The notes: a model not told the origin generated them from the letters alone. A DNA stretch of 58,197 nt from a bacterium (GCA_021160245.1 JAGHCW010000154.1:1-58197), one strand, 5' to 3'. Positions 29,167 through 58,197 are shown, counted from the stretch's first letter. Program-made: numbers and translations.

Positions 29167-29205
29167 CAAGGCGATAGCATCTTGAGGATTTGACGAAAAG
29201 TTTCG

Positions 29206-29245
29206 GGGCGTCCGGCGAGCGAGCTGGGCGCCCTTTCTATTTTTT
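29206..29245 (+). terminator. Rho-independent terminator
   Basis: 11-bp stem GGGCGTCCGGC/GCTGGGCGCCC (two G-U pairs), loop GAGCGA, followed by TTTCTATTTTTT, 40 nt after the stop at 29166. Confidence 0.85.
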
Positions 29246-30450: not shown

Positions 30451-33400
30451 CTATTCAAATATCCAACTAGCGCTCGCGAGATTGCTTGCGATCTCCATGT
30501 CACAAGAATTGCCGTTGAATGCCGCTACATAGAATGTGTACTCACCCTTGGGCATGAAATCGCCGAACCTGAATCGCACTATCTCCATCGGCCCTATTGA
30601 GGCGCCCGGATCGAGCCTGACGAATACTGGCTGCGGGTCCATCGACCAGCCAGGATAGTACAAACATGTGCCATCCGGTAGAATGACCGCGCCAAGAAGA
30701 TCAACTGGCCATTCCGCTGATTCGTTTTCGATTCCGAACGTCAGAACAAGCTCCTCACCGGCCTTCACGATGGACTTGTCCGTGGCCAGACTGACCTCTA
30801 GCCCTACTCCCCCTGGCCCGCCTTCGGTGCCCTCTCCCAGTAGGGCAACCGTAACAACCGGCTCGGCCGGGTCGTTGCTGTAGATATTCAGTGTGTGCAT
30901 GAACTGGCCAACGGATGGCGGATGGAAACTCAGGTAAACCAACTGCGAGCCGCCGGGCTCAACCGTGAAGGACCAATCGCCGGGCGGGGAATGTTGGGTC
31001 TCATAGAACGTCCCTTCAGGAGTGCCGCTGATCTCAAGCCTGCTGACAAAAAGGTCGCCCGAGCCTACGTTGTTTACGTAAAGCTCGCGGCCCTCGTAGC
31101 CGTTGACTACCATCTGGCCAAAGTCGATAGAATTAACACTGAGGTCGATATCCGGGCCCCCCGTGGGACCCCCACCTGTAACGCCAGTTCCGCTGACCTG
31201 AATGGGCGTGGGGCTGTTAGGATCGTTTGACCGTATCTGGAACATCGTGGAATACGAGCGAGCCTGGTCAGGCGTGAACTCAATCGTCATCGTTATGTAA
31301 GAATCCATCTGAACGAATCTCGGATACCAGGAATAAGGCCGTCCATCCTCGAAAGCCGTCCCAAAACCAGCCTGCGACAGGCCATAGACATAGAGGACAG
31401 CGCCCATGCCTTGAGGGTCCCTGTCGTTATACACCCTGAAGGTCATCTGGTCGGTCTGTCCAATAGCGACAGCGCCAAAATCTAAGTTCATCGGCTCAAC
31501 TCTGATATGAGGCGCTGAGACTGACATCTCCGACGACCCAATCAGATCAATAACCAGAGTCCCCTCATCTGGGTCGTTACTCGTAACGGTTGCGGGGGCG
31601 GCGAAGCTCCCGATGAAAGGCGGCGCAAACGTGACGTCAAAAGTGCTGCTCATTTGCGGACCTATTGTCATGGGGAACATCGCATCGATTGAGAAACCCG
31701 GGACCATTGCATCAACTGCAACGCTGGAGACCTCAAGATCGAGGAGGCCATCGTTGAATACCTCTACCGTAACCGTTCCGCTGTTTCCGGGCATGACCAT
31801 GCCAAAGTCGATCACGCTGTGGCTGAGTCTGATATCCGGCTCATTCGCTGCGTACGTTGTGACGCAATCCGGCTCAAGCGGCGGTCGCTCCACGTTGCCA
31901 GCGTTGTCCGTAGATATGGTATAGAACCTGTAAAGGCCATAGCCATCTCTTGGACGGAACGATATCTGGCCGTACTGACCTGTTCTTGTGATATGCGTCG
32001 TCAAGAAGGGCCCTTCGTTATAGCTATACCACAACGTCGTTCTGTCAATGCCACTCGTATGTTCGACAACACTGAAGTCAATTGTTATCCTCGGGTCCAA
32101 GACTAAGTCCGGTCCAGTGCAGAATGATGAAGGAGGCGACACATCATAGATTATGCTGCAGTCCGGCTCTGTCCTCTCCGACTCAACGTTGCCGGCCCAG
32201 TCGTCTGCTGCGGATATGAAATCGTAGAAACCCTCTCCCTCACGTGCCCAGAAGCTGAATGTTCCCGCGGCTATCTCCATCGAAATACCGGGGTCTTCCC
32301 ATTCGTCCGGTGGCTCAAGATCAGCATAGCGCCGGAAGCGATAGAGCAGTTTAACGCCTCGCACGCCGCAGCCATCCTCGTCAAATCCGACGTCTGGGTC
32401 CTGGGCGCTGAATTGAATCGAGAGAGGCGATCTATTTGCAAATATATCGCTTGAGCAGGTTGAGATGGGGGCTGTCGCGTCATAGAGGAGGAAGCATTCC
32501 TCATCCGTCTTTACTGGCTCGATATTGCCCGCTGTATCCTGGCAGAGCGTATAGAAGCCATAGACTCCCTCGCCGTTGGTTAGTTCGAAATCAAAGGCGC
32601 CGGTGTTTCCAGTCTGCGAGAGGCCCGAGTCCATCGGAGCGCTCGAATTGAATGTGTACCAGAGATAGACAAGCACCGGGTCCGCTCGCTCATCCGCGGC
32701 CACGAACGTGACAGCAACCGCCGTTTCATTCGTAAGGGTTGGGCAGAGGCACTCGGAGACGGGGGCCTGACGGTCCACGATACTCACTGTGTCTGACATG
32801 TCAGGTATCCGCTCACGATGGCCCGCCACATCAATAGCTTGTGTGTAGAACGAGTATTCGCCATCGCCGGCGGTGGGGACGTCAAACGTGAAGGTTCCCT
32901 CGGTCGCCGAGATCACCATGCCGGAGTCCTCAAACTCGTCTCCATTGTAGCACCAATAGAGTCGGACTCGTTCGACACCTGTTACCCCGTCAAACGACTG
33001 ATAGCTCACCTCGATCGAGTCTCCGGTAACATAGTCAGGAGATTCACACCAAGAGCTCGGCGGCTTCGTGTCCAGCAGAGTAATGGAATCTGCCGTTTCA
33101 GGCGCATCTTCTATATTCCCGATGTGGTCCTCTGTGATCGTGTAGAACTCATATCTGCCCTCGACGACTCTCCCTCTCTTATCCACATCAGGATAGCTTA
33201 GGGGAACCCTTAGCCAGACGTCAAAGAGCCCGTGTGCTCCGGAACGGGTAAGGCCGGTGTCCGTCCACTCGCCATCCTCGTATCTGTAGAACAGCTTCAC
33301 AGACTTCAGTCCGTTGTTCAATTCAGTCGCCTGATAGCTGACCTGAATCTGATGTGTAGTCGTTATCTCCGGCGACATACAGAGAGAGGATGGAGCCAAA

Positions 33401-36400
33401 ACGTCAAAATAGACCGAGAGCGAATCCGGAAGAAGCGACGCATTCTCCACGTTGCCCGCGGCGTCAATCGCTACTGTATAGAACTCATAGGTTCCATCGC
33501 CTCGCTTGGGCACAAACCGGAAGACGCCGGAAGGCCCTGAGCATCTCGTCGGCAGAAGTTGCCAATCCTCAAATGAGAGCCGATGCCACAGCTGGACCTC
33601 GACAATTGCGCTGACATTATCTGCGGCCGAGTAGTCAAGATATATCTCGCTATCAGTCAGTCTGTTTAGAGTACACGCTGACTGCGGAGCGGTTTCATCA
33701 TAGATAATCGAGGTCTTGGCCGATGAAGGTCCGAGCTCCGGATTACCCGCCATATCCACGGCGACCGTTGTGAACTCTAAGTTCCCCTCGCCAACTCCCG
33801 ACGCGTCGAAAGCAAACGTATCCTCGTCGCCTGGCATTGAGAGTCCACTGTTCTCCCAATCGCCGCCAGCCAACCTGTAATAAAGCGTTGTCGAAGCAAC
33901 ACCTGTGAACTCGTCGTGAGACCTGAATCTCACCGGAATGGCCGCCTCAGTTATATAGCCGCCATCGTCCGCCCAACAACTGGAGACCGGGCGGCACGTA
34001 TCATAGGACGTCGTGCTGTCCGGCGCATCACTGCCAGTAGGCGCTGCTTCCTGATTGCCGATGTTGTCTCGAGTGACCGTGCGGAAATCATAGACGCCAT
34101 CGCCTCGGTTGACATTGAACTGAATCGTCCCGGATGTGCTCTGTCGAGCCTGACCGCTACATGTCCACGCGCCACCGTTAAATCTAAACCATAGCACCGT
34201 GTGGAAGATACCGTTAACACCCTCGCTAACGAAACTGACCGGAATAGGCATCGCGTCGTCATATTCTGGCGAGATGCAAGACGACTCCGGGACAGCGCCA
34301 TTAAATAAGCACTCGCAGTCGGCGGTAGCCGGCGCTTCCTCAACGTTCCCTACGTAGTCCTCCGCAATTGTGTAGAATTGATATATGCCCTCACCGTCTG
34401 TGGGCACGAAATCAAACACACCTGTCTCCTCGTAGGCTGCCAGCTGAGAGTCTGTGAAATCGAGGGGCCATGACGCGCCTGAACTGAAGCGATACCAGAG
34501 GGCGATTGATTTGACGCCGCTCTTGTTGTCACGCGAGGTGAAAGTCACGGGGATCAGAGGCTCTGTGACCTTGACCGGGCAGTCGCACGTTGACTCTGGA
34601 GCTCTGGGGTCTGGGACCCATTCATCAAAGACGAAGAGCTCGTGCCCAACCGTTATGTAAACAAAGCCGTAGGAATCCAAAGAGGGACTCGAATCGACCG
34701 GAATCCCAAAGTCATACGACCAAAGCAGCGTGCCGTTAGGGTTGAGACAGTAGAAATAGCCATCATCGCTCCCGAAATAGACCCGCCCAGCCTGGTCAAC
34801 GACCGGCGAGGAGACTATCGGTCCGTCGGTATCGAATTGCCAGTTGGCCGTTTGGGTAACCGGATCAACCGAATATAGGGTTCCGTCCATCGATGGCACA
34901 TATACCGTACCGGCAGTCGGGTGAACCGCTGGGGACCCCACAATCGGTCCGCCCGTGGCGAACGTCCAAATAGCTGGGCCGGACGTTGAACGTCCGTGAA
35001 GGACACCCTCCTCTGTGCCGCAGTAGAGCTGATTCTCGTCATGGCTCAAAGTTACCGAAACGGTCGTAATAGCGCCGGGCACTGAGTATGCCCATCTCTG
35101 GCTGAAATCTGGGCGGAAGCAATGCGCAGTATATGTCGCAGCGCCGCCGTACGTGAAATAGATGTTACCATCGGAATCTATGGCCGGCGAGCCCACGACT
35201 GGATAGCCGTAAGCGCCCTGCATGGAAAAGCCCATACCACCTGTGTCTGCGGCAACTGGATAAACAGCGCCATCTTCACACGGGACATAAATCCATCCGT
35301 CATCGCCAACAGTTGGCAAAGCAGTGATCTCCATCGAGTTACCAGTCAGAGGAAGCGGATTTACTACCCAATCTGGATTCGGCAGACCGTCCGGGGTAAT
35401 TGACATCAACGAGCCATCTTCAAGACTCATGATGACGTTGCCTAGATGATCAATGACAGGGCCGAGGCTCGTCGGTATCCCGGATGGGTATGCCCAGTCG
35501 AGCCGTCCGTTAGGCAGAACTGCATAGAGCGTCCCATCTGTGGCCGTAACAAAGAGCCTGGCCGTCTGGTCGATGGCAACCGTGTCGTTGAGATCATACT
35601 CACCGAAAGACCTTGCCCACTCAACCTTATCGGTCAGCGGCCCATCAGCGTCCATGTAGCCCCTGTGGCCTCTGTCGCATCCTTGCATCGGCCAGAGCTC
35701 GCTACAAACCGCAACCCAATAATATGAACCGATGTCGCCGGGATTATGGAGCGCAATTTGAACGTAATATGTGCCACTCTCGTTGCACATGAAGCTAACG
35801 CTCGCGTTGTCACCTACGCCGCCCTGCGTGTCGCTGTCCACCAGCGTGAGGTCCCCGCAACTACCGGAATAAACGAAGACGTCAGTATCGGTAATTACAT
35901 CGTCAATACCGTATGTGAATACGCGGTACCTAATGCCCTCAAGGGCCTCAAATTGAAGCCAATCCTCATCCCCATGAGGCGCGAGCGTGTGATACTGGCC
36001 GACACAATCCGCTTCAATTGGGATTGCGTCACTGCAGACGTCATCGTCCTCATAATCATCTACCTCATACGCGACTACGCTTATGTCGTAGTTATGCGCA
36101 ATAGCGACCGGATAGATACCGTCCCAGCCACCATGTGTGACCATAAGGAAATAGTCATCGTCGGCAGGGCACTCCCACCAAAGCTCCGCGCCCCCACCAT
36201 TACCCTGCGCGCCATCCAAGTATGATGCTCCAGGGCAGGTCCCCGAGTAAACGCCGATATCGGTATCCGCATCCAGCGAGAGGTGATGTGTCCTGAAATA
36301 ATAGTACCAAGAGCCATGCAATGTGGGCATACTGAACCAATCCTGATCAGGTCCCAGGCGATCATAAATGAGGCTATGGTCCTCGTATTGTGGGAAGCCT

Positions 36401-38928
36401 GTGCCCGGATCCAAAATTGGAATTATCCGCGCCTCGCCACAGTTGTTATCGTCCTCGAATTGGTCATAGACGTAAACACCGTCAAAATAGCCATTGTCGC
36501 CGGGGGTCGCGATAGATGGATATTGAGCGATCGTCCGACCCTCGTCATCAACGCCGTAGTAATAGCCGAAATAACGCCCACGTGGCAAAGCGATGTTGCC
36601 TGTTCTCCAGGTGTCGCCCCCAGCTGAGTTCAGCCAGAAATCGTTGTCGAAGGGATTACTCAGGTCATCTGTCAGATAAGCATACCTGAGAATTGGGTCC
36701 GCGAGCTCCTCATCGACGAAATCGACTTGTAGCGTAAAAGAGTTGCCCTCTTGAACCTGAACGTATTCTGTCCCGTTCATAAGTTCCGGGAGCCCCTGAA
36801 CCCTTAATGAGGCGCCAATGTCATGGCCAAACCAGCTGATCTCGAATTCGTCTGGCAAAGCTCCCCCACCAACGAGTCGTTCGGGGAAGGAATAAGAAGC
36901 CCAGACGTTGCCATCAAGGATGGATGACGATGGATCAGTCGCACTGGGGGTGAATGAATCCCAGTAAGTATAGCTATTCCCCGCGTCATCGTTATATATG
37001 AAGACGCGAGAGACGCCATCGTCTGTGCCGAACATCACATTCTCAGTAAATGGATAAAAGGCGTAACCTGGCGCCCGCGCGCCCAGGTAGTTTACGCTCA
37101 AGCAGCGAACATCGTCCGAGCGCAGTCCGGACGTACCGCTCTGATAATTCGTCCAGGTTAGGGTGTTGCTGTTGAAGCGGGAAACCCCGTTATCCGTCGC
37201 CACCCAAATAATATCGTCCCCAATCGATCCCACGTCAGTTACGTTATTTGAGACGAGGCCATCGGCCATCGTGTATTGCACGGCGCCACTTGTCCCTCTA
37301 TACAAACCCTCCCCGGTGCTGCCCAGCCAGATATCGCCCTGGCCGTCAATCGTTATCGAGGTCAACTCACTGCCCAGTAGAAACGGCCCGAATGGAGGAG
37401 CTCCATCGAAACTGAAGCCGCCGTTGTTGGTCACCACCCATATAATGCCGGTTGCTTCATCAATATAAATATCATTGATATGGTCGTCTGGTATGTCAGG
37501 AGTAGTGTAAACAGTCATTGCGCCAGTGCCGACATCAAGACCGACCAAACCAGCCTCGGTTCCGATCCAGGTAGTGGCTCCATAGGGTCTAACGACGGAA
37601 GTAGTCGGGCTGGGGAGGCCATCCGCCTCGAAATAGTTCGACCAATTCACCCCATCGAACCAGCTAACGCCGCCGAGGGCTCCGAACCACGCTTCTTCGT
37701 AACTCCCGTTGGGGTCGCCATAAACCGAGGTTATGTCATTCGAGATGAGCTGGTCATCATACTCGAAGTCCCCAACAAGATAACCAGATGTGCCGAAATA
37801 GCGGGTCCAAATCCTATTGACAGTACCAAAGTAAACCTTGGTGTCGAACGGAATCATGGTCGCCCCTGTAGCCTCAATATCGTTCACAACTTGTGTGATT
37901 TCGCCAATCACCGAAATGGTGCTTCCTGAAGAACCTGTCAACGTCCAATAGGCCGCGCCAGCGTCGGTCCCAATCCAGAGGTTGCTCTCATCGTCAAACT
38001 CAAGAGATAGCACGCGGTCGGAAGGAAGACCGGCCCTGCCATCGATTGAGTTAAACCTAAGGCCGAGCGCGCTCATATCGCCCGCCGGGAAATGGGCAAT
38101 TGTGCCCGCACTCCCACCTGGCCCGTCGTCAGCCCACAAGCCCACTAGTCCATAGTCTTCCATTCCACAGAAGACTATTTCCCGCAGACCCGGCTCAGTT
38201 GCGCGAGCAACTGCATTGACGTTGTTACTGGGCAATTCACTGTTATTTGTATCCCAGTACTCAAATTGAATATCCATTGCCATCGGGATAGTTCGAATAA
38301 CTCCCTCTCCGACACTGCCCATCCATATTCTTCTATCCATCTCGCCACTGCCTTCGATGAAAATCGAGACTATATTCGGGTTGTCCGATGGAAGGCCATC
38401 AGTGCTGTCCCACGTATCCATAGTATAGTCATCGAACATGCCATAATAGATATAGGCAGGCCCCTGATCCGTGCCTATGAATATGACGTCTTCACCAAAC
38501 GAACCATTCAAAGCCTGAACATTGTCGGAGGGTAGGTCTGAATCGGCCGCTGTGAAGGAATAGCGGATTATACCTGTGTCAGGCTCAAATCCATGAAGAC
38601 CATATCCGTCCGTGCCAAGCCACTTTATATCGTAAAACTCCATATTCAGACGATCATAATGTCTAGACTTCGCAAGCGCCTGAATGTTATTCGTCGGAAG
38701 CCCATCTTCGGTCGTCCACTTCTCAAATGAAGCGGTAGTATCCGTGATATTGTAAACTCGCAACAACCCGCTGTTGGAAGCCCCCGCCCACAGCTCCTCG
38801 TCATCTAGAAGGAGCGTCGTAATGTCATCACCATTTACGAAATGCTCCCAGAACAATCCGATAGCCGTCGCGGCGAAGAGACTGGCAATCACCGAGACCA
38901 ATACTATCAACCGCCACCTTGATACCAT
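30451..38928 (-). CDS. Giant secreted surface protein, 2825 aa: regulator-type propellers, Ig-like, 2 PPC-like, PQQ/BamB-like propeller, 9 Ig-like repeats, 3 ASH/choice-of-anchor-D-like, conserved C-terminal domain
   Basis: Signal peptide; GLPS..V....D....WIGT..G repeats; D.(F/Y)EDD..C..A...D.DW twice; WPMQ then SP.(I/V)D..G..YFGS.DG..Y repeats; nine D..aP.S.C...G.Y.FYT.A.D.aGN.E repeats; three P.I......DFG.......V.N.G...L....SNDP units; AGGAGG RBS. Confidence 0.9.
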   Translation of the reverse strand: MVSRWRLIVLVSVIASLFAATAIGLFWEHFVNGDDITTLLLDDEELWAGASNSGLLRVYNITDTTASFEKWTTEDGLPTNNIQALAKSRHYDRLNMEFYDIKWLGTDGYGLHGFEPDTGIIRYSFTAADSDLPSDNVQALNGSFGEDVIFIGTDQGPAYIYYGMFDDYTMDTWDSTDGLPSDNPNIVSIFIEGSGEMDRRIWMGSVGEGVIRTIPMAMDIQFEYWDTNNSELPSNNVNAVARATEPGLREIVFCGMEDYGLVGLWADDGPGGSAGTIAHFPAGDMSALGLRFNSIDGRAGLPSDRVLSLEFDDESNLWIGTDAGAAYWTLTGSSGSTISVIGEITQVVNDIEATGATMIPFDTKVYFGTVNRIWTRYFGTSGYLVGDFEYDDQLISNDITSVYGDPNGSYEEAWFGALGGVSWFDGVNWSNYFEADGLPSPTTSVVRPYGATTWIGTEAGLVGLDVGTGAMTVYTTPDIPDDHINDIYIDEATGIIWVVTNNGGFSFDGAPPFGPFLLGSELTSITIDGQGDIWLGSTGEGLYRGTSGAVQYTMADGLVSNNVTDVGSIGDDIIWVATDNGVSRFNSNTLTWTNYQSGTSGLRSDDVRCLSVNYLGARAPGYAFYPFTENVMFGTDDGVSRVFIYNDDAGNSYTYWDSFTPSATDPSSSILDGNVWASYSFPERLVGGGALPDEFEISWFGHDIGASLRVQGLPELMNGTEYVQVQEGNSFTLQVDFVDEELADPILRYAYLTDDLSNPFDNDFWLNSAGGDTWRTGNIALPRGRYFGYYYGVDDEGRTIAQYPSIATPGDNGYFDGVYVYDQFEDDNNCGEARIIPILDPGTGFPQYEDHSLIYDRLGPDQDWFSMPTLHGSWYYYFRTHHLSLDADTDIGVYSGTCPGASYLDGAQGNGGGAELWWECPADDDYFLMVTHGGWDGIYPVAIAHNYDISVVAYEVDDYEDDDVCSDAIPIEADCVGQYHTLAPHGDEDWLQFEALEGIRYRVFTYGIDDVITDTDVFVYSGSCGDLTLVDSDTQGGVGDNASVSFMCNESGTYYVQIALHNPGDIGSYYWVAVCSELWPMQGCDRGHRGYMDADGPLTDKVEWARSFGEYDLNDTVAIDQTARLFVTATDGTLYAVLPNGRLDWAYPSGIPTSLGPVIDHLGNVIMSLEDGSLMSITPDGLPNPDWVVNPLPLTGNSMEITALPTVGDDGWIYVPCEDGAVYPVAADTGGMGFSMQGAYGYPVVGSPAIDSDGNIYFTYGGAATYTAHCFRPDFSQRWAYSVPGAITTVSVTLSHDENQLYCGTEEGVLHGRSTSGPAIWTFATGGPIVGSPAVHPTAGTVYVPSMDGTLYSVDPVTQTANWQFDTDGPIVSSPVVDQAGRVYFGSDDGYFYCLNPNGTLLWSYDFGIPVDSSPSLDSYGFVYITVGHELFVFDEWVPDPRAPESTCDCPVKVTEPLIPVTFTSRDNKSGVKSIALWYRFSSGASWPLDFTDSQLAAYEETGVFDFVPTDGEGIYQFYTIAEDYVGNVEEAPATADCECLFNGAVPESSCISPEYDDAMPIPVSFVSEGVNGIFHTVLWFRFNGGAWTCSGQARQSTSGTIQFNVNRGDGVYDFRTVTRDNIGNQEAAPTGSDAPDSTTSYDTCRPVSSCWADDGGYITEAAIPVRFRSHDEFTGVASTTLYYRLAGGDWENSGLSMPGDEDTFAFDASGVGEGNLEFTTVAVDMAGNPELGPSSAKTSIIYDETAPQSACTLNRLTDSEIYLDYSAADNVSAIVEVQLWHRLSFEDWQLLPTRCSGPSGVFRFVPKRGDGTYEFYTVAIDAAGNVENASLLPDSLSVYFDVLAPSSLCMSPEITTTHQIQVSYQATELNNGLKSVKLFYRYEDGEWTDTGLTRSGAHGLFDVWLRVPLSYPDVDKRGRVVEGRYEFYTITEDHIGNIEDAPETADSITLLDTKPPSSWCESPDYVTGDSIEVSYQSFDGVTGVERVRLYWCYNGDEFEDSGMVISATEGTFTFDVPTAGDGEYSFYTQAIDVAGHRERIPDMSDTVSIVDRQAPVSECLCPTLTNETAVAVTFVAADERADPVLVYLWYTFNSSAPMDSGLSQTGNTGAFDFELTNGEGVYGFYTLCQDTAGNIEPVKTDEECFLLYDATAPISTCSSDIFANRSPLSIQFSAQDPDVGFDEDGCGVRGVKLLYRFRRYADLEPPDEWEDPGISMEIAAGTFSFWAREGEGFYDFISAADDWAGNVESERTEPDCSIIYDVSPPSSFCTGPDLVLDPRITIDFSVVEHTSGIDRTTLWYSYNEGPFLTTHITRTGQYGQISFRPRDGYGLYRFYTISTDNAGNVERPPLEPDCVTTYAANEPDIRLSHSVIDFGMVMPGNSGTVTVEVFNDGLLDLEVSSVAVDAMVPGFSIDAMFPMTIGPQMSSTFDVTFAPPFIGSFAAPATVTSNDPDEGTLVIDLIGSSEMSVSAPHIRVEPMNLDFGAVAIGQTDQMTFRVYNDRDPQGMGAVLYVYGLSQAGFGTAFEDGRPYSWYPRFVQMDSYITMTIEFTPDQARSYSTMFQIRSNDPNSPTPIQVSGTGVTGGGPTGGPDIDLSVNSIDFGQMVVNGYEGRELYVNNVGSGDLFVSRLEISGTPEGTFYETQHSPPGDWSFTVEPGGSQLVYLSFHPPSVGQFMHTLNIYSNDPAEPVVTVALLGEGTEGGPGGVGLEVSLATDKSIVKAGEELVLTFGIENESAEWPVDLLGAVILPDGTCLYYPGWSMDPQPVFVRLDPGASIGPMEIVRFRFGDFMPKGEYTFYVAAFNGNSCDMEIASNLASASWIFE

Positions 38929-39048
38929 ATCGAGAACCTCCTAATTCAGCAGTTAGAAGACATCTTAATTACTATGACGATAGTACTCTAACCAGAGTGT
39001 TGTTAATGCTATATAGAATTATATCCTTGAGCTTGGCTCCTCGCCAAT

Positions 39049-42000
39049 CTAGTAACTGCTCCCAACATCGAAATTGCAGGTCGATATCGGACCCATGAAA
39101 TCAAGGCTGCCGGGCGCCGCAAGAGCCGCATAGAAAGTGTAGGAGCCCGGTGCAATGCCCATACCCGGCGATATCCGCATGAGCTCGAAATCAACAAGCC
39201 TAAAACCTTCATCAAGAGTTAGAACGAATCCTGAAAGCTCTTGCGACCAATCCGGCCAAAAATAGAGACTACCAAATGGGTCTTGCACCGCGATATAGGC
39301 CTCTACATCTATGCTAGGGCCTTTATTCTCAACAGAAACATCAATCACGATCTCATCGTCGTCGTGCAACCTCGACGCGGCCTGCGCCTCGATGGAGATC
39401 GTTGGTGGCTCCACGAGAACGCCATAGCCAACGACTGGCACTTCCACCTTCGATGGCTGTCCACCTTTCACGTTAACCCACCATATCTCTAAAACTGCGC
39501 TAATCCTCCCCAACTCAGTAGGTTGGAAAATGATCTGAGCCGTGCTGTAATCCTCGCCCCCAATGGTAACGGGGAATGAACTTATGCATTCAAAGCTCTG
39601 AATGAGCGTGCTCTGTGATGCCACTACTACGTCCGTAACACGAAGGTCAGCACCACCCACATTCAATAGCTGCAGAGTGCTTGCGCTCACTTGGTTAAGA
39701 AGAACCTCACCGAAAGAGATGGATTCCGGGAAAACCCTCAATTCAGGTATGCCCGGAACATAGGAATATGTGGTGTCCGCCTCATCCGGAGCATCCTCCA
39801 CATTTCCGGCCTTATCAGTTCCGATGGAGTAGAATGAATACTCTCCTCTTCCATCTGTCGGGGAGAATCGGAATGAGTAACTCCAAGGCAGATTGGTTGT
39901 GGCGGAAGTAGCTTCCTGCCATTCACCGCCCGCATAGCTATACCAAAGCGCAACGTCACCAATGCCAGCTACCTCATCATCTACGGTGAAGTAAACAAAC
40001 ATCAGCTCACCGTCAACCTTCACCTCGCCGGTACATTCCGTCTCCGGCGGCGTCGCGTCATATATGCACGGAACCAGCGTCGAAGGCGTTGACTGAACAT
40101 TGCCTGAGTGATCCGTAGCGATACAGATGAAGCCATAGCGGCCCTCGCCTCGGTCAAGATGATAGGTGAAGGATGTCTCAGTCTCGTCCGCTGTAAGGCC
40201 TGTATCAAAGAAGTTCTCTAGTTCAAACTGACAATAAAGGTGGAGATTCGCTACGCCTGAACCCTCGTCTGTGCCCCAGCAGGAAAGCGTCGCGATCGTC
40301 GGCTCCGTCACAAAATATGGAGCAGAGACACCGGAACCCGGAGGGATAGTATCATATATGGTCGAGCATTCTGCCTCGTTCTTCATAATTTCACTACGGC
40401 CAGCCATGTCAATACTGTGAGTAAAGAACTCAAACACCCCGTCGCCCTCTGGCTTGAATGTAAGGACGCCCTGAGTCCCAGACCCAAAAACACCACTATC
40501 GGCCCACTTCTTAGCGCCTTCATCGTCCTTGGCGCCATCCTTGTTATACCAAAGGTAGGTGTTCATGAATCCCGTGTCATCGTGGGCCGTGAAATGAACG
40601 GCAACCGATTCACCAGATGTATACTCATCGCAGGTGCAGGTCGAGCTCGGCGCGAGAATATCCATATATGCTGTGCATTTGGCGGCAAGCGGCTCCTGAT
40701 TGCCAGAATAGTCCGAACTGACGCTTGCAAACTCGTAAACGCCCATTCCCTGGTCGCGATCGAATACGAATCGGCCACTGCCGTCGGCTGAGTGCCAGCC
40801 TATATCTCGCCAAGCGCCACCGTTAAAACGATAATAGATAACTGTGGTCTGAACGCCGCTAACATCATCGGTAGCCTCAAATGAAACGACAAAGGGCATA
40901 GAGGTCAAGAACATGACCGGCGCGCATTCGAACTCATCTTCGTCAAGGCCAGAAATCACCGTCCCATCTTTGGGAATGCAGACGAAACAAGATGATTGTG
41001 GATTGGTTACGTCATATCGCCACGTGGCCTTCGGAGGTGTCCAGAAGCCGGGCGTTGTTTCCGTATTCCCCACGATATCATGAGCTATTGTGTAGAATTC
41101 ATAGATGCCCTCTCCAAACGTCTCATCAAAGACGAACGTCCCAGTCCAGGGAATCGTCGCCGTCGAGACCCTTGTCCAGGACCCTGCAGAATAACCAATC
41201 CCTGGTGAATATCGATAGTATAGGTCCACATTCGTAACGGTTGATACGGCGTCCTGCGCTGTGAAGCTGATATTAATCGGAGTTGCTGTCGTAGCATACG
41301 GGCAAGAGCAGGAACTCGTCGGCGCCGAGGCGTCGTAGATTATCTCCATAAAGGATGTGGACTGCTCAACGTTGCCTGCAACGTCGGTGGCGATCGCCAT
41401 TACCTTATATTCGCCCTCGCCGCCAGAAAATGGCAATAAGAACTGCCCGGTCGCCTGCGCGCTCGAAAGCCCAGTAGATAGCCACGTAACTTGACCCGGA
41501 GGCATCCAGAATAACTCAACATTAGATACTCCCGATCCATTCTGGCCGTCGGTTGCCTCGTAAGATATCACAACTGTTGATTCGCTACTCATACCCGAAG
41601 CAAATATAAGCGTTGAGGGCAACTGGGTGTCCCTGAACATCGTGAAGTCCGGCACATCGTGCCCGGCCTCCATATTGCCCGCCATATCGCTCATCTGCGA
41701 ATAAAACTCGTAAGCACCGTCGCCGTCGACTGGTGTGAATGAAATAACACCAAACTCGCCCTGATCATTAAGCATCGGGCTCATCCACGCGCCGGCTTCA
41801 TATCTGACGAATAGCACAACATCATCGACGCCTGAGAAATCATCCCAAGCGGTGAACTCAATTGGGACATCCCCGCCTGTGGAATAAGCGGGTCCGTTGC
41901 ACATAGAAGTCCCTGCATTCCGGTCGAGTATAATGGTGCATTCGCCAAGATCATCCCTCTGAGCGCCAGTGGCGTTATCCCACGCCTCAGTCCGGAATAA

Positions 42001-45000
42001 ATAGACACCGTCGTCGGTAAGGCCAGAGAACTCAAAACTATCATTTAACGTTGCCGCTCCGGCTCCATCAATCGTAAGACCAGTGTCCATCTCCAGGCCG
42101 CCCTCGGACCGGTAGTAAAGCCGCACGGCATCCTGATTCTTAAGCCCCATGCCGCTGTTGTCTTGAGCGACGAATGGGATGATAACCGGCAACTCATTTG
42201 TGTAGGCCGGATCGAACGTCGGTGTAGAGGTCGGCGGCGCGGGCGCGTATGATGTCGTAACTACTTTGCCCTCTGCAATCGCACGAGTTATATGCTCCGC
42301 GTTGCCGCATTTGTCCGTTGCAAGCGCGGCAAAGAGATACTGACCGCCGGCTTCACCCAAGAAGGCTGTCGGGTAAAACTCGAACACCCCGCTGTCGCCT
42401 CCGACTGTGGGAATATTATACCTGCTCCAGTTGGCTGGATCAGAACTCTCATTGTTATATACGTACCAGAGATTCACATGATCCACGCCACTTCTATCGT
42501 CAACCGACCAAAAATCAATCAGCATGGGAGCTCTCGTGAATTCAAGAGGCACGCTGCAAGCCGAAGTTGGCGGAATTACATCATAAATCATAAAGCCGCA
42601 CGGCTGCGTGTCGGCACTGGGCGCCGGCTCCACATTCTCGGAGTTGTCCCAGCCCTGCGTGTAGAAGTAATAATGGCCATCCTCATTCTCGGGAAGAGTA
42701 ATCGTGAAATTGCCAAAGGGGCCAAACGCATTAAGGCCGGTATTTCGCCAGAGGCCATCATTGAATCTAAACCACAGCCTCGTCCGCGCCGGACCGCTCA
42801 GAACGTCAAAGAGCGTGAAGTCGATCTCGATATTCTCCCGGCTGACGGAATAACTCTCAAGCGCGCAATCTGAAACAGGCAGAGTGGTATCAAATACCGT
42901 TGTGCCCTTCACCTGCAGCGGCTCGATATTGGACGGGTCTGCGTTATCGTACGCTCTGGTACATAAATCGTAAATCCCCTCTGATGGCGGATTAAAGATA
43001 AAGCGTCCAGATGTCCCGTACTTCGGATCGAGCCCACTGTCCTGCCAAGCGCCGCCATCTTTGCTGAACCAAAGCTCCGTGTATGCCACGCCCGTCCTTC
43101 TCATGCCAGTGTCCCAAGCGGTGAAATCAAGCACGATCGGGACGGTATCCGCATTCCCATACGCCGGCGGCTCGTTCGGCGACTCAAACTGCGACGCCGG
43201 GTCCGCTGTGTCAGGCACGACGGAATCGTTGTAGCTGTAAAGCCGACCGTCAGGCTTTGCCCAATACAATGTGCCGTCATTGGCGATTGCGCAGGAAAGC
43301 GCCGGCGGCTCGCCCAAATCTGGGCTCTCCCATACAGACGCTCCAGAGGAAGTAATACAATGATACTTGTTGTCATCGGCGCCGAAATAGATGTGCCCAG
43401 AACGGTCCATAATAAGGGCCGACCTGACCGGCGCGCCGACATCATAAACTACTGTGGCTATGCTAGCGTATTGATCCTCAATTGCGTAGATATAGCCGTC
43501 ATCGCAACCAAAATAGACGGTTCCGTCTGGCGCTATTACCGGCACGGAGAGCACGCTATCCGGCATTATGATCTCCCAGCGCAAATCGGCAGCGCATGGC
43601 ATCAACATCGGGTCCGGACGCTCTGCGCAACAGAAGCGCCTCGTGGAAGACCCAAAGAATATCGAGCCATCCGTTGCCATGGCCGCGGCCATCCTGTCAT
43701 CCCTGAGGCCCTCGTCGTACCACCAGGACAATGCCCCATTCGGGTCCAACGTACCATCCGGATCAACCACGTGGAAAACTCCGCATCCGCCTCCGATATA
43801 GATATCCTCAAACTCACCAATCATCAGCGTCCCGGTAAACTCCTCGCCCTCTACATTTGAGATATACGGGAATCCTGCCTTGAGGCCGCCATTCATGTTG
43901 ACGGCATAGAGGTACCCGTCATCGTCGCCGAAGTAGATCGTGTAGTTCTCAACCCTGTTGATTGCAACGCCGGCTCGAATCGCCGCCTCAGTCTGCGACA
44001 CGTACGGGAATCCAGCCTTCAGTGCTCCGAGCTCGCTTACGCCATAAAGCCTACCGTCCTCAGTACCGAAATAGACGTAGCGATCGTAGGAGAGGGCGGG
44101 AGTTGTTGTGATTGCATGGGCTGTGTGATACGCCCACTTCAACGTGCCATCCGAGGCGACGGCCATCAAACTGTTGTCGCTTGTGCCAAAATAGACCGTC
44201 CCGTCCCCGTCGATTACAGGCGCTGTAGTAATTATGTCATTTGGTATCGTGTAAATCCAATTCACGTTCGTGCTGACCGGTCCGTCCACGGCCGAATTAC
44301 CAGTCCGCTCAAGGTCCCTTTGGAGCATCGGCCACTGCGGCCCATATACGGAGAACTGATAATGTCCCAACGCGCAGTCTAAGACTGCCGCCGGGTTTGA
44401 ATGCTCTACCATGATGTAATACTCGCCTGTATTGAGGCACGGGAAGACTATCTCGGTGTTCGTCGAATCCAAGTCCTGGCGAAGTAAAGCTGTTCCGGCG
44501 CAAGGATCGCCCCTATCATAGAGGTACACGTTGCCCGTATAGTCGAAAAAGCCCGGCGCGCGCTCAACTTCTATGAGATAAGTTATCTGCGACTCGGCGT
44601 AGAACTTAAACCAATCCACATCGCCCGGGGCCTCGAGATTATGTCCCGTATGCCAATAGCCATTGGTTGGAAGAAGAGTTGCTCCGGTGCAGGTGTTGTC
44701 TGCTGGCTCAAAGGCATCAGGGGCCCAGGGCTCGCAAGTAATCGTGGGCCCCGCATAGGGGCCATCATCAACCAGATTGTTATCGGCCTCAAGGGCATAG
44801 AAATGGAACGAGTGAGCACCGACTGCTAACTCGGGCCAAGCTGCCGTGTAACGCCAAAGGCCGCTACAATAGTCGCCCGATATGAGCGTCATGTCGTAGT
44901 CGCCACCGTCTATCTCAACCCACAGCCTGACGGGAGCCTCGCATTCCGGGTCCTCGTAGCGAACCGTATAAACAAACGTCTCGTTCCTATCGCCTGAAAG

Positions 45001-47151: not shown

Positions 47152-47209
47152 ACCGATTAACCTCCGTCACTTATTCGAGTTGTTCTCATTAGGCATACTC
47201 GTAATTATC

Positions 47210-50200
47210 TTAAAAAAGTACCCACCTAATCTCCGCTACTTCTGTCATGAAATTATACCGTGTCCCCGGCTCAACAAGTGCCGCGAAAAGCTTATATTCA
47301 CCTTTCGGTAATTCACCTTCATTATATTCAAACCTGAGGAATGGCAACGGCGGCGTGTTCAGGCCAGCGGGTAGCGACACCGAGATCCCGGTCGGGTTCG
47401 TCGTCCAGTCCGGGAAGTAGCAAAGCTCTCCCGTCGGCAGCATCGCCGCGATGTAGAGGTCTGCCTCAACATCCTCGAAGACGCCAGCTATTCCTATCGA
47501 AGCCTCCAGCTCTTGACCGTCGCCAATTACTCGCGCCGGCGCCTTGAGGAAAAGCGTCGGTCCTAGGGGCCCGAGGCCTGTTCCGCTGACCGCGACTTGG
47601 GTAATCGGCAAATTGTCGTCGTTGCTGTAAATCATAATCGTCGTATCCGTTACGCCTACCGTCCACGGACAAAATACGACCGGGAAATCTAGCCAATCCC
47701 CGGGCGCAATGCTTCTGTTCGTATCTGATAAGTAGAAAGTATCCAGGTTGTTCGAGTATATGCTGCTGATAAGAAGATTACCTGTGCCATGATTGTTGAT
47801 GCGCAGTAACCATTGCCTCTCCGCGCCAATCGAAAGCATCCCAAAATCATGGCTCAATACAGGTATATCGATCTCCGGCTCAGCGGGACCGCAGATAACT
47901 GTGCAATCTGCATACGCGGGCGCCGGCTCCCTATTGTTAGCCTCGTCTTCGGCTCTGGTGTAAAACTCGTACGTCCCATTGCATTCAGGTGGATAGAAAA
48001 GGAATATACCCGCCTCAGTGTAGTAGTCGGGATCGTCATACTGGGTCCAAACCCCGCCTTCATATCTGTACCAGAGATACGTCCTATAAACACCTGATGT
48101 GTCAAAGTCGTTCTCCGGCCAGCTCTCGGATAGGAATGGATCGTCGTCGGCAACGTAGTCAATCGCTATCAGGCCATCCGTCACGTGCCAATCGTCGCAG
48201 CTGCATTCCGACATGGGTGGAATCACGTCGTAAGTAATGTACGCGTCCCAGTAAGGGACACCATCGGGAACGTTGAACTTGAGGAGCGGCCGCTCCTGCT
48301 CATTCCCTGCGCTATCAATTGCCTGAGTATAGAACGCATACTCCCCATTGCCGTCCTGGGGATAGAAGTGGAAGAAGCCGGCGTCGGCAGGGAGCGCCTG
48401 TCCCGTGTAGCGCCAATCGATGTCGTCACCCGTCCAGTCATTTATCGGCGTCGGAGCGAAGACTCGATACGCATAGAAGAGCCTCACCTCCTCCAATCCG
48501 CTTGAATTGCCATTGGCATCGCTCGCCGTGAAGAGTATCTCAAGGGGATTATCCGAATCACCAGTCAAATGCTGAGAGATCGGACTTGTATTCACCCAAC
48601 ACCTTGACGATGGCGCGCCGATTTCGTAACGGGTCGTCGCCTTCGGGGTCAGTAGCATCGGTTCGACGTTGCCTGCATTGTCGGTCGTTCGAGTATAGAA
48701 ATCATATATACCGAGACCGTGATTGAAGACAAACTTGAACGTCCCCTCTGTAAGTGTCTCGATGTGCCCACTCGACTCCCAACCGATGTCTCTGCTAGAA
48801 TCATCGGGATCGGTGTACTTATACCAGAGCTCCACCGAGCTCGGACCGCTACGGTCGTCAGAGGCGCTGAATTGAACGTCAACGAAATGACGCCAGGTTG
48901 CATCCGGAGCAGAGCAGGTCGATTCCGGCATAACAGTATCATAGACCGTGGTGCAATCGACGCCCTTGATCCCCTCCCTGTTGCCACCTAAGTCGGTAGC
49001 GTGCAACAGGAATTCGTAGTAGCCCTCACCCTCCGGCGGGTCAAACTCCAGATATCCAGTCAAAACCGTCGCCTCGGTGATGTAATCCTGCCAGGCGCCA
49101 CCCTCGTACGTGTAGGCTAGTTCCATCGAATAGATGAACGGGCTCGTCTCATAACTTATTACTATGGGCGCCACATTCGTATAGGGATCACAGAAGCCTC
49201 TTGAACTTGGCTCTGCATAAATGATCTCAGACGAGCAATCCGCCTCATCCTTGAAGGGCTCTTGATGGCCCACCGCATCCACAGATTGTGTCAGGAAATA
49301 GTAAGTGCCGCTAACTGCCATTGGGTAGAATTCGAAGGTGCCGCTCGGTCCCTCCAATGACATTCCGGTATCCACCCACTCGCCATCGTCGTGCTTGGCC
49401 CAAAGCCCAGTCTCAACAACCTCGCTCCCGGCGTCTGTGGCCGAGTAAGACACGCGAATAGGGATCATCCGCGATGTTGATGAGCAGCGGCATGATGAAT
49501 CAGGCGGCTGAGTATCACAGTTTGACAAAGCGTCGTAAGTCTTGGGCGGGACCTCGATGTTCCCACAGTTATCAACTGCTATGGTGTAGAAGCGATAGAC
49601 ACCGTCGCCGTTCGCCGCGGTGAACTGAAACACTCCGGCATCGGCGTCAGATACGTATGTGCTTCTGATGTAATCACCATCATTGAAGCTATAAAAGAGC
49701 CGCACCTCCGCAAGGCCCGCCACATTATCCGAGCCAAGGAACGAGACCGGTATGTCGCCCTGTGAGAAGACGTCCGCTGCTATGCAGACAGAGTTCGGGT
49801 CGCTTATGTCGTAAACGATTGCGCAATCAGGATCAGTCTCGTCCTGAGGCGCGGGCTCCCAGTTGCCAGCTACGTCGCGGGCTCTTGTGTAGAAGCGATA
49901 GATGCCTTCGCTTTGCCACTGAGCCGGGTTCGGGTTGTATGCGAAAGAACTCGACAGGGCACGGGCCGCAGGCGCAATGTTGATATCAGGGGTAATCTCT
50001 GTCCACGATACGTCGCTCTTATACTTGAGATAACATCTAATCGTGTCAACGCCCGTCGCGTCATCGCTTGCCGTGTAGTTCACAACGATCGGCAGAATCC
50101 TCGTGTAGTCGGCGCAGCTTGCCGCTGATTCTGGCGTAATGACATCATAGAAGACTGAAATCATGAAGTTCTGGGCGTTCTCATAGTCCTGCTGGTTGTT

Positions 50201-53200
50201 CATCTCGTCCGTCGCTACGATGAAGAAGTCATACTGTCCCTGACCGTAGGTGGCGTCGAAAGAAAATGTCACGAGTCCAGTCTCAGTATCGAAGCCGAAC
50301 GTATCAATTCCACTATCTTGCCACTCGCCCTGGTTAAACCTGTAGTAGAAGCGAATGGTAAAGGTCTCAGAAAAGAAGTCGGTTAGAGCGAATTCATCAA
50401 TGATAAACGGAGTGCTGCTGAACGCGGGAGGCGCGCCGAGGACTAACGTCGTCGGAGGGCTTGTATCATAAAGCGTTTGCGAATCGTAATAATAGACAGG
50501 GGAGTCCTCAATCAGACCGGAGCAATCGGTTGCCCGGGTGTAGAAGGCGTAATAGCCGTCGCCATCGGGTGGAGAGAACATGAACGTGCCCGTCTCGCCG
50601 GCCAGTGACGAGACCGTCGCCGCGGCCGCAATTGGCGCCCAACTATCGCCATCAAGACAATGATCATAATAGAGTGTTGTCCAAGCGACTCCACTGCCAT
50701 CATCAGCGGAGACGTAATCGACAGGAATCTCCGGAGCATTACTGGAAAGCGGGCTTGAGCACTCAGACCTCGGAGCCGTGTTATCGACCATAGGTCCGTA
50801 ATAAACGCCAGTCTCGGGGGCTCTTGCTACGCCACCATAGCCATCCTCAAACAGGAAATAATAGGTGTGCAATCCTTGCTCGGCGAATTGCGTGTCGAGC
50901 GTAAATATAAACGTATATGGGTCGCTGCCCGGCTGCCAATCGGAGATGTGATATGACACGTCATCAAGCACGATGAAGCATTTCGCAGGGAAATCGTAAT
51001 CAATGTCCTGATAAGTTGTGAAGAACCGGAATGTCTCGGCGGTACTTCCAGCAGCCGGAATTACGCCTGTATTCCCGACCGGATCAGTTACAAGGTCCGG
51101 CTCCGCATTCTCGCTTGCAATAGCATACATCGTATTGCCTGCAACAAAGAAGACCTCATGGTCAAGTCCGATTACTATGGAGGATACTATCGGCTGGCCA
51201 ACATCGCCGGCATAGAGAACGTCAATTCCCGGACCGGTTGGCAGCTGCACCTCACCCATGAGAAATAGGGAACCACTCTCAGAACCCACATAAACGTGTC
51301 CGGCGCCATCGACCGCCGGCGCGTGACATATAGGTCCGCCAGTGTCGAAGCTCCAGTTAAGACTCAAAACCCCTTCGTCCCTGTTCAACGCGTAGAAGAT
51401 GCCGTCTGTGGAACCGAAGTAAAAGCTGTCGTCACCACCAAACGCTCCGTGGCCCTCAATCGCGCCTCCTGTTTGGAATGTCGAGATCGGTGTGTTGAAG
51501 TTGTTCGGGGCGAAGCTGCGCATAATGCCGTCATCTGCCCCAACATAGACGTAGCCATCGCTGTCAACTACGGGGGAGGTGCGGATCGGGTACCCAACCG
51601 TCCCCTGGTTGTTGATGCTCCCGTTGCCGGTATCTATATTGTATAGTCTCCCTTCGGTACAACCAATATAAAGCTCGGACTCGTCGGGAGAAAGCGCGGG
51701 CGAGGAATTCAAGAACGGGCAGGCAACCTGTCTGTCCCACCTCAACGAGCCGTTGGGCTCAAGTGAGTAAACGCCACCGTCAAAAGAGGCGAAATAGATG
51801 TTCCCGTCAGAATCTACGACCGGCGAGGAGTAAATCCCCGCGCTCAAGGGGCCAGGGTATGGGTAGCGCCAGTAAAGCGCTCCATTTGCAGAGTACACCG
51901 CATAGAAATAGCCTTCTTGAGTGCCATAATAGACCACTGAACCATCGGGCGAAAGCGCCGGAGAACACATAACGGGATCAAGATCAAACGGCTCATAGAC
52001 CCATCTTTCCTCAAAATCAGGGGACAACGACACGAGCCGACCATAATCCGCCCCGAAGTAGAGATTGCCCGCACCATCAATTGCAGGTGTTGAGGCGATG
52101 GTCGGGCCAGTCGTGTATGTATGCGCGACCTGATATTCCCTCGGACCGATGGATGCCGCAGTCGCTGGCCTTGTGCCAACGCGGCCCAGCATCGGCCATT
52201 GGTTTCCTGATATAGAGATGCTGTAAACCCCGGCGCTCTCGAGCGAGGAGCCCGGGGAAGCGTTGTCGATAACCCTTAGGAAATAGTAGCCCGCGACCTC
52301 TGCTACAAAGGGGAACGGCGCGGTCGAATCGCCGCCCGGATTCGGCGCAAGGGTACAGTCATCGAGATAAATCTCCACCTCGACGGCAGCCCCAGCCGCG
52401 GCATTCAGCGTTATGGTGTATTCAATATCGGTATCTGCCCTGAAATAGAACCAGTCTTCGTCCGTTCCCAGTGGCACGAGGTTGTGGCCCGAGTGGACGC
52501 TCCCGTCAGTCCATATAAGCGCTGCGTCCATACATCTGTTATCCGGCTCAAAACCGTCCCAGGTATCAGGACCCGTGAATGTATCTTGCGGATACCTAAC
52601 TTGACAGCCATCACTGTCAGCAAAGACGAAATAGTGGACCCAATGGCCGGAGTCGAGCGCGAGCGTAGTTGCATAATTCCCGTTATCCGGTGAGCCGGAT
52701 ACGAGTTCCATATCGTAAGGTGAGGCGCTCTGCTCGTCACGACCGACGAAGACCTCCGCGCTAATCGGCGCGAAGCCATCCACATCCATGTAGGTTACTC
52801 CAAACGTATAATCAGTAAGCGGTCCACTCAATGCGGGCTCTAGCGTCGCATCCAAGAGAACGGGCATGCCCTGCCTGAGGACCGAGGCGCCTCCTCGCGT
52901 CGCAAGCCAAAGGCCTATGCAAGGCTGGTAGCAGAGATCATAGACATTATCGTTAATCAAGCCACTGTTCTTTGTGGTGAAGCGCTCGCCTGTCATCGTG
53001 CCATCGGTGAACTTCGTTAGGCCGCGGCTCGTGGCTATCCAGACTGTATCGCTCGAACCAAATATGATGGAGTTTATCGTATTGCTTCCGAGTCCCGACC
53101 CGAAATCGCTGGTCCTGATCGTCGTCCAGACATTTTGAGCTCTATCAAACTTACTAATGCCGTTGGTCGTCCCGATCCAGATACAGCCGTTCGCATCAAC

Positions 53201-58196: not shown

Positions 58197-58197
58197 G

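Follow-up and report, generated by a model that had tools for sequence, protein, structure and literature searches.

The stretch of DNA analysed in this work (hereinafter, the window) is the entire contig C86 (JAGHCW010000154.1, 58,197 bases) of the bacterial assembly GCA_021160245.1 (hereinafter, G000), the metagenome-assembled genome (MAG) of an uncultured vent bacterium, 3.43 Mb in 244 contigs that is rated 94.8% complete. From position 30,451 to its right end, the window harbors four co-oriented genes (genes 1–4; Table 1) coding for giant modular proteins, whose common plan runs from N-terminal beta-propellers (the heads) through a stalk of immunoglobulin (Ig)-like repeats to a C-terminal domain of about 122 amino acids (aa), the tail. 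The gene set, its order, and its individual repeats are conserved in another genus, and the tail is a terminal module found throughout the genome. We propose that the four genes form an operon of old, non-redundant surface proteins similar to fibrillar adhesins, which would be held by a lineage-wide terminal docking domain; we consider this reading fairly probable.

According to this reading, the genes would make up a conserved operon, about 30 kb in length and read from gene 4 to gene 1, and each product would be exported by Sec. The N-terminal double propeller heads would bind ligands, probably glycans; the products of genes 1–3 also contain one or two PPC-like domains and a second, BamB/PQQ-like propeller; and a rod of 8–12 Ig/fibronectin type III (FnIII)-like domains would hold the heads tens of nanometres out, roughly 30–50 nm if a length of about 4 nm is assumed for each Ig-like domain. 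The tail, in turn, would dock the proteins that carry it on the cell surface or in the matrix, most likely via an envelope polymer or a partner rather than through a membrane helix.

Conservation and organization of the four-gene array

The phylum-level group to which G000 belongs comprises seven species genomes, all of one family. As suggested in an initial annotation of the window, synteny and copy number were compared in these relatives. Contig C18 of G005, a relative from another genus, has four genes in one orientation, coding for proteins of 1898, 2539, 2665, and 3015 aa with 6, 9, 11, and 9 stalk repeats, respectively; they stand after pheT, in the same order as in the window, and their products are 51–56% identical to those of window genes 4, 3, 2, and 1. 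The G005 array is flanked by pheS/pheT and by an integrase-family gene, and the genes flanking the array in the window have no counterparts at that locus. Orthologues of gene 3 are present in all six relatives (55–62% identical, full length in three); those of gene 1 were retrieved from G001, G003, G005, and G006 (54–57% identical in G005 and G003) and not found with that query in G002 and G004. The array is partly present in G003, where genes 1 and 2 lie on a short contig, and in G001. As a taxonomic lead only ("Coatesbacteria-like"), one G003 frame is 70% identical to an NCBI protein labelled Candidatus Coatesbacteria (P0165), a name that PMC12343361 equates with RBG-13-66-14 and calls poorly characterised.

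The conservation extends to the single repeats. For all 35 stalk repeats, the best match is the positionally equivalent repeat of the G005 orthologue, with 43–74% identity vs. 29–44% for any other repeat of the same protein or of a paralogue, and no pair of repeats inside the window exceeds 44%. Between window and G005 orthologues, identity is 55–61% for the heads, 53–62% for the PQQ-like propeller, 52–62% for the stalk, 46–57% for the tail, and 38–48% for the ASH domains that precede it, so that conservation is similar for heads, stalk, and tail; paralogues share 20–36% across modules (23–33% for heads, propeller, and tail). The sole module number that differs between genera is that of the ASH domains of gene 1 (three in G000, four in G003, and five in G005). 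Since all the repeats are positionally orthologous and paralogues are far less alike than orthologues, the set is old and fixed: on this comparison, these are four long-separated, individually constrained genes, and neither a variable repertoire nor repeats homogenised by recombination. Hence the "repertoire" of the initial annotation, taken as a variable set, does not agree with the one-to-one orthologues found in other genera. The array also differs from the Periscope-type surface proteins, described in PMC9704523 as length-variable, with a repeat number that differs between close relatives; here, the stalk counts are the same in another genus, and variation is confined to the number of ASH domains in gene 1. 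Uncultured bacteria commonly encode giant stalked surface proteins, and the array as such is no surprise; it represents a clean case of an evolutionarily frozen set of giant repeat proteins, in which order, repeat number, and individual repeats have been maintained from one genus to another. Such constancy argues for a functional specification of the rod length and of each module, in contrast to the length-variable adhesins usually described.

In principle, such an array might have arisen through misassembly, or might be a contingency locus that varies rapidly; the MAG is fragmented, and many members of the family end at contig ends. This explanation is largely refuted, and we regard it as extremely improbable. 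Misassembly was checked on the Logan contigs of runs X1 and X2, which cover 30 of 30 bins of window positions 38198–58197 at no less than 99% identity, without joints or indels, the junctions between genes 1 and 2 and between genes 3 and 4 being each bridged by separate per-run contigs. The two runs come from one study, labelled hydrothermal vent metagenome, and X1 may be the source sample, which makes their support weakly independent; depth in these contigs is just 2–8, which accounts for the fragmented assembly. Stronger support comes from the comparison of genomes: the same array occurs in G005 and, in part, in G003 and G001, and the individual conservation of all 35 repeats, with pairs within the window at 44% or less, is opposed to a contingency locus.

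The window ends within gene 4, whose start was sought beyond the contig end. Contig C32 of G000 carries a GT9 glycosyltransferase gene, pheT, a spacer of 308 nucleotides (nt), and then an open reading frame (ORF) of 799 aa with a signal peptide and Reg_prop propellers, 53% identical to residues 26–821 of the G005 gene 4 product. C32 and C86 are thus most likely neighbours, judging from these matches and from about 20 bases common to their ends, with the first ~797 codons of gene 4 lying on C32 after pheT; gene 4 would therefore be about 1870 aa long, its full-length G005 orthologue having 1898. According to this join and to the G005 synteny, the array consists of exactly four genes; the four paralogs of the initial annotation stand, and its open-ended count ("at least four") does not.

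The gene structure described there was otherwise recovered. The four ORFs contain no internal stops and are separated by short spacers of 120, 58, and 34 nt, the last becoming 55 nt with translation of gene 3 from the second ATG (position 54904). A ribosome-binding site (AGGAGG or GGAGG) lies 6–9 nt upstream of the ATG at each of the three visible starts, that of gene 3 fitting the second ATG. No transporter was found among the genes neighbouring the array in the window, nor any export gene beside it. Within the array, promoter-like matches (18 vs. 15.6 expected from shuffles) and terminators (16 vs. 14.5) are at chance, including two promoter-like matches in the gene 2/1 spacer. The spacer between pheT and gene 4 contains TTGACA-17-TACTAT (10 of 12 consensus positions), which aligns with TTGACA-17-TAGTAT of G005 in an otherwise diverged spacer. 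The short spacers and this conserved promoter-like site suggest a single transcript of about 30 kb, probably started by a promoter immediately after pheT and extending from gene 4 through gene 1.

Domain architecture of the four proteins

Hydrophobic Sec-type signal N-termini were read directly in genes 1–3 and, for gene 4, on C32. Pfam and NCBIfam assigned Reg_prop propellers to the N-termini of all four proteins, the head being a double Reg_prop propeller in their common plan, and a further PQQ_2/BamB-like propeller to genes 1–3. In sequence searches, the heads matched the periplasmic sensor domain of Bacteroides hybrid two-component systems (4a2l, E 1e-30; 3v9f, E 1e-19), the match to the BT4663-type domain 4a2l at E 1e-30 being that of the gene 2 heads; the second propeller matched propellers of archaeal "cell surface proteins" as well as designed propellers based on these. 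An internal hidden Markov model (HMM) retrieved 2, 1, 1, and 0 PPC-like domains in genes 1, 2, 3, and 4, the numbers initially annotated; two of these domains are just sub-threshold with Pfam PPC (22.7 and 24.8 bits vs. a cut-off of 25.9). The plan with PPC-like domains and a PQQ-like propeller, proposed for all four proteins, applies to genes 1–3; both are absent from gene 4, in the window as well as in the full-length G005 orthologue.

With the PQQ-dependent dehydrogenases (TIGR03075, 23.8 bits vs. a cut-off of 480) and with BamB (TIGR03300, 37–44 bits vs. 285), the propeller class alone is in common. A hybrid two-component sensor was likewise discarded: Reg_prop matched, and Pfam retrieved no Y_Y_Y, HisKA, HATPase, or receiver domain from the four proteins. 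The homology with the Bacteroides sensor domain (4a2l/4a2m, 3v9f) concerns the sequence of the Reg_prop double propeller, whereas the four proteins have no Y_Y_Y match, membrane span, kinase, or regulator modules, and their heads would tip an extracellular rod. In agreement with the initial annotation, no catalytic family exceeded its threshold in Pfam or NCBIfam.

An HMM of the stalk repeat, built from these proteins, gave 35 matches (domain E 1e-20 to 1e-36), distributed 9/11/9/6 in genes 1/2/3/4 as annotated. In the library searches, mid-protein stretches match Big_13 and OmpL47-type beta-barrel domains, the latter (NF047446, cut-off 40 bits) being passed by genes 2, 3, and 4 (54.7, 44.6, and 51.1 bits), with gene 1 just below (37.9). 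The repeat is modelled as a confident six-strand beta-sandwich (predicted local distance difference test, pLDDT, 95.1); Foldseek found no structural match at E ≤ 0.001, those to FnIII/Ig domains being weak. The internal HMMs revealed an additional Ig-like domain after each head, distantly related to the stalk repeat, and another after the second propeller of gene 3, which the initial module list, otherwise accurate in its counts, had missed. From the last propeller to the tail, the rods thus contain 12, 12, 11, and 8 Ig-like domains in genes 1, 2, 3, and 4; the idea of propellers displayed at "different heights" is accordingly weak, since gene 4 alone is clearly shorter.

The C-terminal regions match choice-of-anchor-D, ASH, and HYDIN-type Ig domains (Pfam, NCBIfam), and the 3/1/1/1 count of ASH domains was found again with the internal HMM and the library matches. 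Gene 1 is above the curated cut-off of NF012200 (45 bits); the single domain of genes 2, 3, and 4, immediately N-terminal to the tail, is sub-threshold (29.6, 21.3, and 40.5 bits) and homologous according to the internal HMM. One such domain directly precedes the tail in all four proteins. This is the similarity with choice-of-anchor D proteins (NF012200; Pfam ASH, HYDIN/VesB/CFA65-like Ig), although the domain accounts here for little of each protein and no function is implied by the family name.

Fibrillar adhesins are described as long exported proteins with a binding domain on a stalk (10.1101/2020.12.07.414375; PMC9210967). The proteins of the array resemble them as multidomain proteins, predicted to be exported, with a binding-type head on a tandem Ig-like stalk, distal to the presumed anchor end; the tandem stalk itself is documented by the 9/11/9/6 repeats and by the confident beta-sandwich model. 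They differ from them in the stalk number, fixed between genera, and in the putative organization as a four-gene operon; moreover, none of the four proteins matched a known adhesive family, the heads being Reg_prop/PQQ-like propellers homologous to a ligand-sensing domain, or contained a known anchor motif, the tail being the candidate for docking. The reading as adhesins or surface-layer proteins, already put forward in the initial annotation, is consistent with the Sec-type N-termini, the binding-type heads, the Ig-like rod, and the common terminal domain.

The tail domain

Using a tail HMM iterated on the genome's own ORFs, we retrieved 134 copies of the tail in 117 ORFs of G000 (92,093 aa in total). 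In 88 of these ORFs it lies no more than 15 residues from the C-terminus, in 19 it directly follows the signal peptide, and in the remaining 10 it is cut or located elsewhere. The "shared tail" initially annotated is thus present in all four proteins but is not specific to their family, being a genome-wide terminal module. A crude signal-peptide test was positive for 84 of 91 complete tail ORFs vs. 592 of 1657 background ORFs. The stalk repeat occurs in 237 copies in 24 ORFs, 14 of which are cut by contig ends, with the plan [variable head], stalk repeats, ASH, and one to three tails; the largest member of this family (3626 aa, C162:15211-26091) has 12 stalk repeats, about 1000 aa without assignment, and three tandem tails. 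Overall, 124 ORFs bear the tail or the stalk, corresponding to 9.2% of G000 and including 19 of the 30 ORFs of at least 1500 aa.

The other domains of tail-bearing proteins were surveyed in 40 (every second one) of the 80 complete tail ORFs devoid of a stalk. Nine contained a right-handed beta-helix, six an FGE-sulfatase domain (N-terminal-tail class), and four Reg_prop; peptidase S8, peptidase C25, and Sortilin/BNR were found twice each, PQQ, AhpC, DUF6345, and a PKD-propeller once each, and 11 ORFs had no other domain. The main N-terminal-tail class consists of FGE-sulfatase paralogues with the order signal peptide, tail, FGE-sulfatase, six of them of ~355–425 aa and one of 560 aa; PorK/GldK of the type IX secretion system (T9SS) is a protein of the FGE-sulfatase family. 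Two gingipain-type C25 peptidases carry a C-terminal tail (C115:5700-8996 and C124:10509-12737) and, by analogy with the T9SS, where C25-family enzymes act as sortase, are candidate processing enzymes.

The tail is present in all seven genomes of the phylum-level group, with 48–150 matches each, and in 5 of 144 genomes of other families, four of them with many copies. These four (G028, G101, G059, and G050) belong to unrelated families, with 5 to at least 29 matches, a patchy spread. Searched against 1.84 billion representative proteins, the tail profile gave 3314 matches at E ≤ 0.001, of which 1040 at E ≤ 1e-10. When the 148 top representatives were taken, 145 were re-hit, with the tail only C-terminal in 56, only N-terminal in 66, at both ends or in short proteins in 16, and internal in 7, i.e., terminal in 138 of 145. 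Several tail-bearing frames of the relatives are interrupted by one in-frame stop codon (TAG, TGA, or TAA; e.g., G003:C3:51342-51716 and G002:C379:3894-4265), which could reflect either pseudogenes or, the MAGs being of low coverage, errors of sequencing.

None of the 22 tails examined belongs to a Pfam family, the stray matches being weak (MG2 2/22, DUF4785_2nd 2/22); NCBIfam gave no match over the last ~125 residues of the four proteins, and the ESM Atlas returned only "hypothetical protein" clusters. Keyword searches of abstracts and listings, which cannot find a sequence family, retrieved no description of this family or of its tail. From the 22-sequence alignment A1, the tail is modelled as an eight-strand beta-sandwich (pLDDT 91.9), placed by Foldseek and VIA-align among the sandwiches of FnIII/macroglobulin (MG)/CARDB type. 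Its best structural match is RbmA of V. cholerae (4be5; Z 11.5, root-mean-square deviation 2.3 Å over 103 residues, 16% identity), followed by the Ig domain of AlkC, the N-domains of dextranases, macroglobulin MG domains, CARDB (Z 8.9), and the carbohydrate-binding domain of Wzt (Z 8.6). RbmA differs in being a small two-domain matrix protein; the fold is common, and the match with the tail is a structural one.

BamA, four secretin genes, and a GT9 heptosyltransferase are encoded in G000, so that a diderm envelope with lipopolysaccharide and a secretion of type II/IV-pilus type is likely. By analogy, the tail behaves like a docking or anchoring module, unlike a strictly C-terminal export signal: it is confined almost entirely to protein termini, whether N or C, occurs at times in tandem, and accompanies exported proteins of diverse kinds. 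SLH domains and dockerins have the same distribution.

The tail might instead serve a dedicated secretion system as a cleavable export or sorting signal, in the manner of the C-terminal domain (CTD) of T9SS cargo, the four proteins representing its largest cargo. As in T9SS cargo, a common C-terminal beta-sandwich of ~120 aa stands on unrelated exported proteins, occupying the very C-terminal end of 88 ORFs whose other domains are diverse, C25 and S8 peptidases included. The tail of the four proteins also follows a "choice-of-anchor" domain, and the tail is many-copy in the genomes of the group and in four of the five other genomes that bear it. Furthermore, the heads give weak matches to NF052228 (53–74 bits vs. 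a cut-off of 260), reminiscent of PorZ, a T9SS cargo with a double propeller and a CTD. However, the tail is N-terminal, after the signal peptide, in 19 of the 117 ORFs of G000 and N-terminal in 66 of the 145 representatives, and it also occurs in tandem. No T9SS tail model matched the four proteins at E ≤ 0.01 (Pfam, NCBIfam) or the 22 tails at E ≤ 1 (Pfam), and PorV was found neither in G000 (95% complete) nor in the five other tail-bearing genomes examined; the searches for SprA, GldM, and GldL were blank as well, but control searches were equally silent. On balance, we consider a sorting signal of this type unlikely. It is possible, though doubtful, that the tail marks a new sorting or surface-docking system, working at either end of over 100 exported proteins in each genome, which would take up about 8% of the DNA; its cargo would include the four giants, proteases, beta-helix proteins, and FGE-sulfatase proteins, in a small candidate phylum and a few unrelated lineages.

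Two further explanations concern the array itself. The four proteins might assemble with one another into a single hetero-oligomeric structure outside the cell, for instance a fibre, sheath, or coat, in which tails or rods pack together. The co-inheritance of the four genes with fixed order and repeat numbers across genera, the near-equal rods of three of them (12, 12, and 11 domains), and the role of RbmA as a matrix scaffold speak for such an assembly; nevertheless, a tail borne by 117 ORFs, proteases included, alone cannot specify a four-part complex, and the paralogues have low identity (20–36% across modules), so that we assign it a low probability. The proteins might otherwise capture or process extracellular polymers as a cellulosome-type scaffold, with propellers that bind or act on polysaccharides or proteins and tails that dock them beside the proteases and beta-helix proteins bearing the same domain. 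PPC-like domains are a usual component of secreted peptidases, and their presence in genes 1–3, the homology of the heads with a glycan-sensing domain, and the tail-bearing beta-helix proteins and S8 and C25 peptidases of the same genome are compatible with this function; on the other side, no catalytic family is above threshold in the four proteins, the PQQ-dehydrogenase model remains at 23.8 bits vs. 480, and library scans of the four proteins found no cohesin or dockerin, making this explanation very unlikely.

Some points weigh against the reading that we favour, i.e., an operon of adhesin-like proteins docked by the tail. The fold of the tail is a generic Ig/FnIII/MG sandwich, and its similarity to RbmA says little on function; the two or three tandem copies seen in some proteins and the internal position in a few fit a binding module, but also a plain structural Ig domain; and no receptor, sortase, or dedicated exporter was identified. 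The heads resemble a sensor domain and not a proven adhesive domain. Moreover, the promoter call is a consensus match in two genomes, and the junction of C32 with C86 is supported by about 20 common bases (19/20), after which the last ~37 bases of C32 diverge.

Whatever its role, the tail labels proteins that make up about one-tenth of the coding capacity in a near-unknown phylum, thus providing a handle on the exported surface proteome of the organism. It is compact, lacks Pfam and NCBIfam matches, and has a confident predicted fold; its profiling in genomes could serve to look for new sorting or attachment machinery.

Other features of the window

The coordinates of the array and of the other tail-bearing ORFs are reported in Table 1.

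Table 1. Features of the array and other tail-bearing ORFs (positions in the window, except for the last row).
Feature	Position	Strand	Description
Gene 1 (last in the putative operon)	30451..38928	minus	2825-aa ORF; signal-type N-terminus, Reg_prop heads, Ig-like, 2 PPC-like, PQQ/BamB-like propeller, 9 stalk repeats, 3 ASH, tail
Tail, gene 1	30454..30825	minus	~122-aa beta-sandwich; tail HMM
ASH region, gene 1	30847..31863	minus	three choice-of-anchor-D/ASH Ig domains; NF012200, 106.2 bits (cut-off 45)
Stalk, gene 1	31864..34629	minus	9 Ig/FnIII-like repeats, ~100 aa each
Spacer, genes 2/1	38929..39048	minus	120 nt; AGGAGG ahead of the gene 1 ATG
Gene 2	39049..47151	minus	2700-aa ORF; heads, Ig-like, 1 PPC-like, PQQ-like propeller, 11 stalk repeats, 1 ASH, tail
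Tail, gene 2	39052..39423	minus	tail HMM
Stalk, gene 2	39772..43233	minus	11 repeats
Spacer, genes 3/2	47152..47209	minus	58 nt; GGAGG ahead of the gene 2 ATG
Gene 3	47210..54925	minus	2571-aa ORF, likely true start 54904 (second ATG); heads, Ig-like, 1 PPC-like, PQQ-like propeller, extra Ig-like, 9 stalk repeats, 1 ASH, tail
Tail, gene 3	47213..47578	minus	tail HMM
Stalk, gene 3	47903..50800	minus	9 repeats
Spacer, genes 4/3	54905..54959	minus	55 nt with start 54904; GGAGGGG ahead of that ATG
Gene 4, C-terminal 1078 codons	54960..58197 (ORF 54960-58196)	minus	cut by the contig end; end of Reg_prop head, Ig-like, 6 stalk repeats, 1 ASH, tail
Tail, gene 4	54963..55328	minus	tail HMM
Stalk, gene 4	55653..57434	minus	6 repeats
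Reg_prop + PKD protein	3409..5565	minus	718 aa; same tail (tail HMM), unrelated to the array
FGE-sulfatase tail set (other contigs of G000)	C172:20843-22063, C216:409-1683, C128:1226-2443, C129:16224-17435, C27:19148-20401, C29:789-2063, C209:5015-6082, C67:6631-8313		

The left end of the window (3-677, plus strand) is occupied by a fragment of a DDE transposase (PF01609) that runs off the contig, so that both contig ends stop in repeated or multi-copy sequence. The 718-aa tail protein adjoins the ATPase of a Wzt-type ABC transporter with the Wzt C-terminal glycan-binding domain (2146-3375). Further downstream, the ORF at 12177-17639 (plus strand) codes for a fusion of 1820 aa that embeds a Ser/Thr protein kinase, AAA_16, TPR, GAF, a sigma-54 activator AAA+ domain, and a Fis-type helix-turn-helix, an unusually long one-protein signalling chain with the enhancer-binding module at its end. 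Lastly, a PKD/ZU5-domain protein of 1421 aa (24901-29166, plus strand), devoid of the tail domain, is encoded convergently with gene 1, and its ORF is followed at 29205-29234 by a strong terminator-like hairpin of 12 pairs, nine of them G-C, with a T-run.

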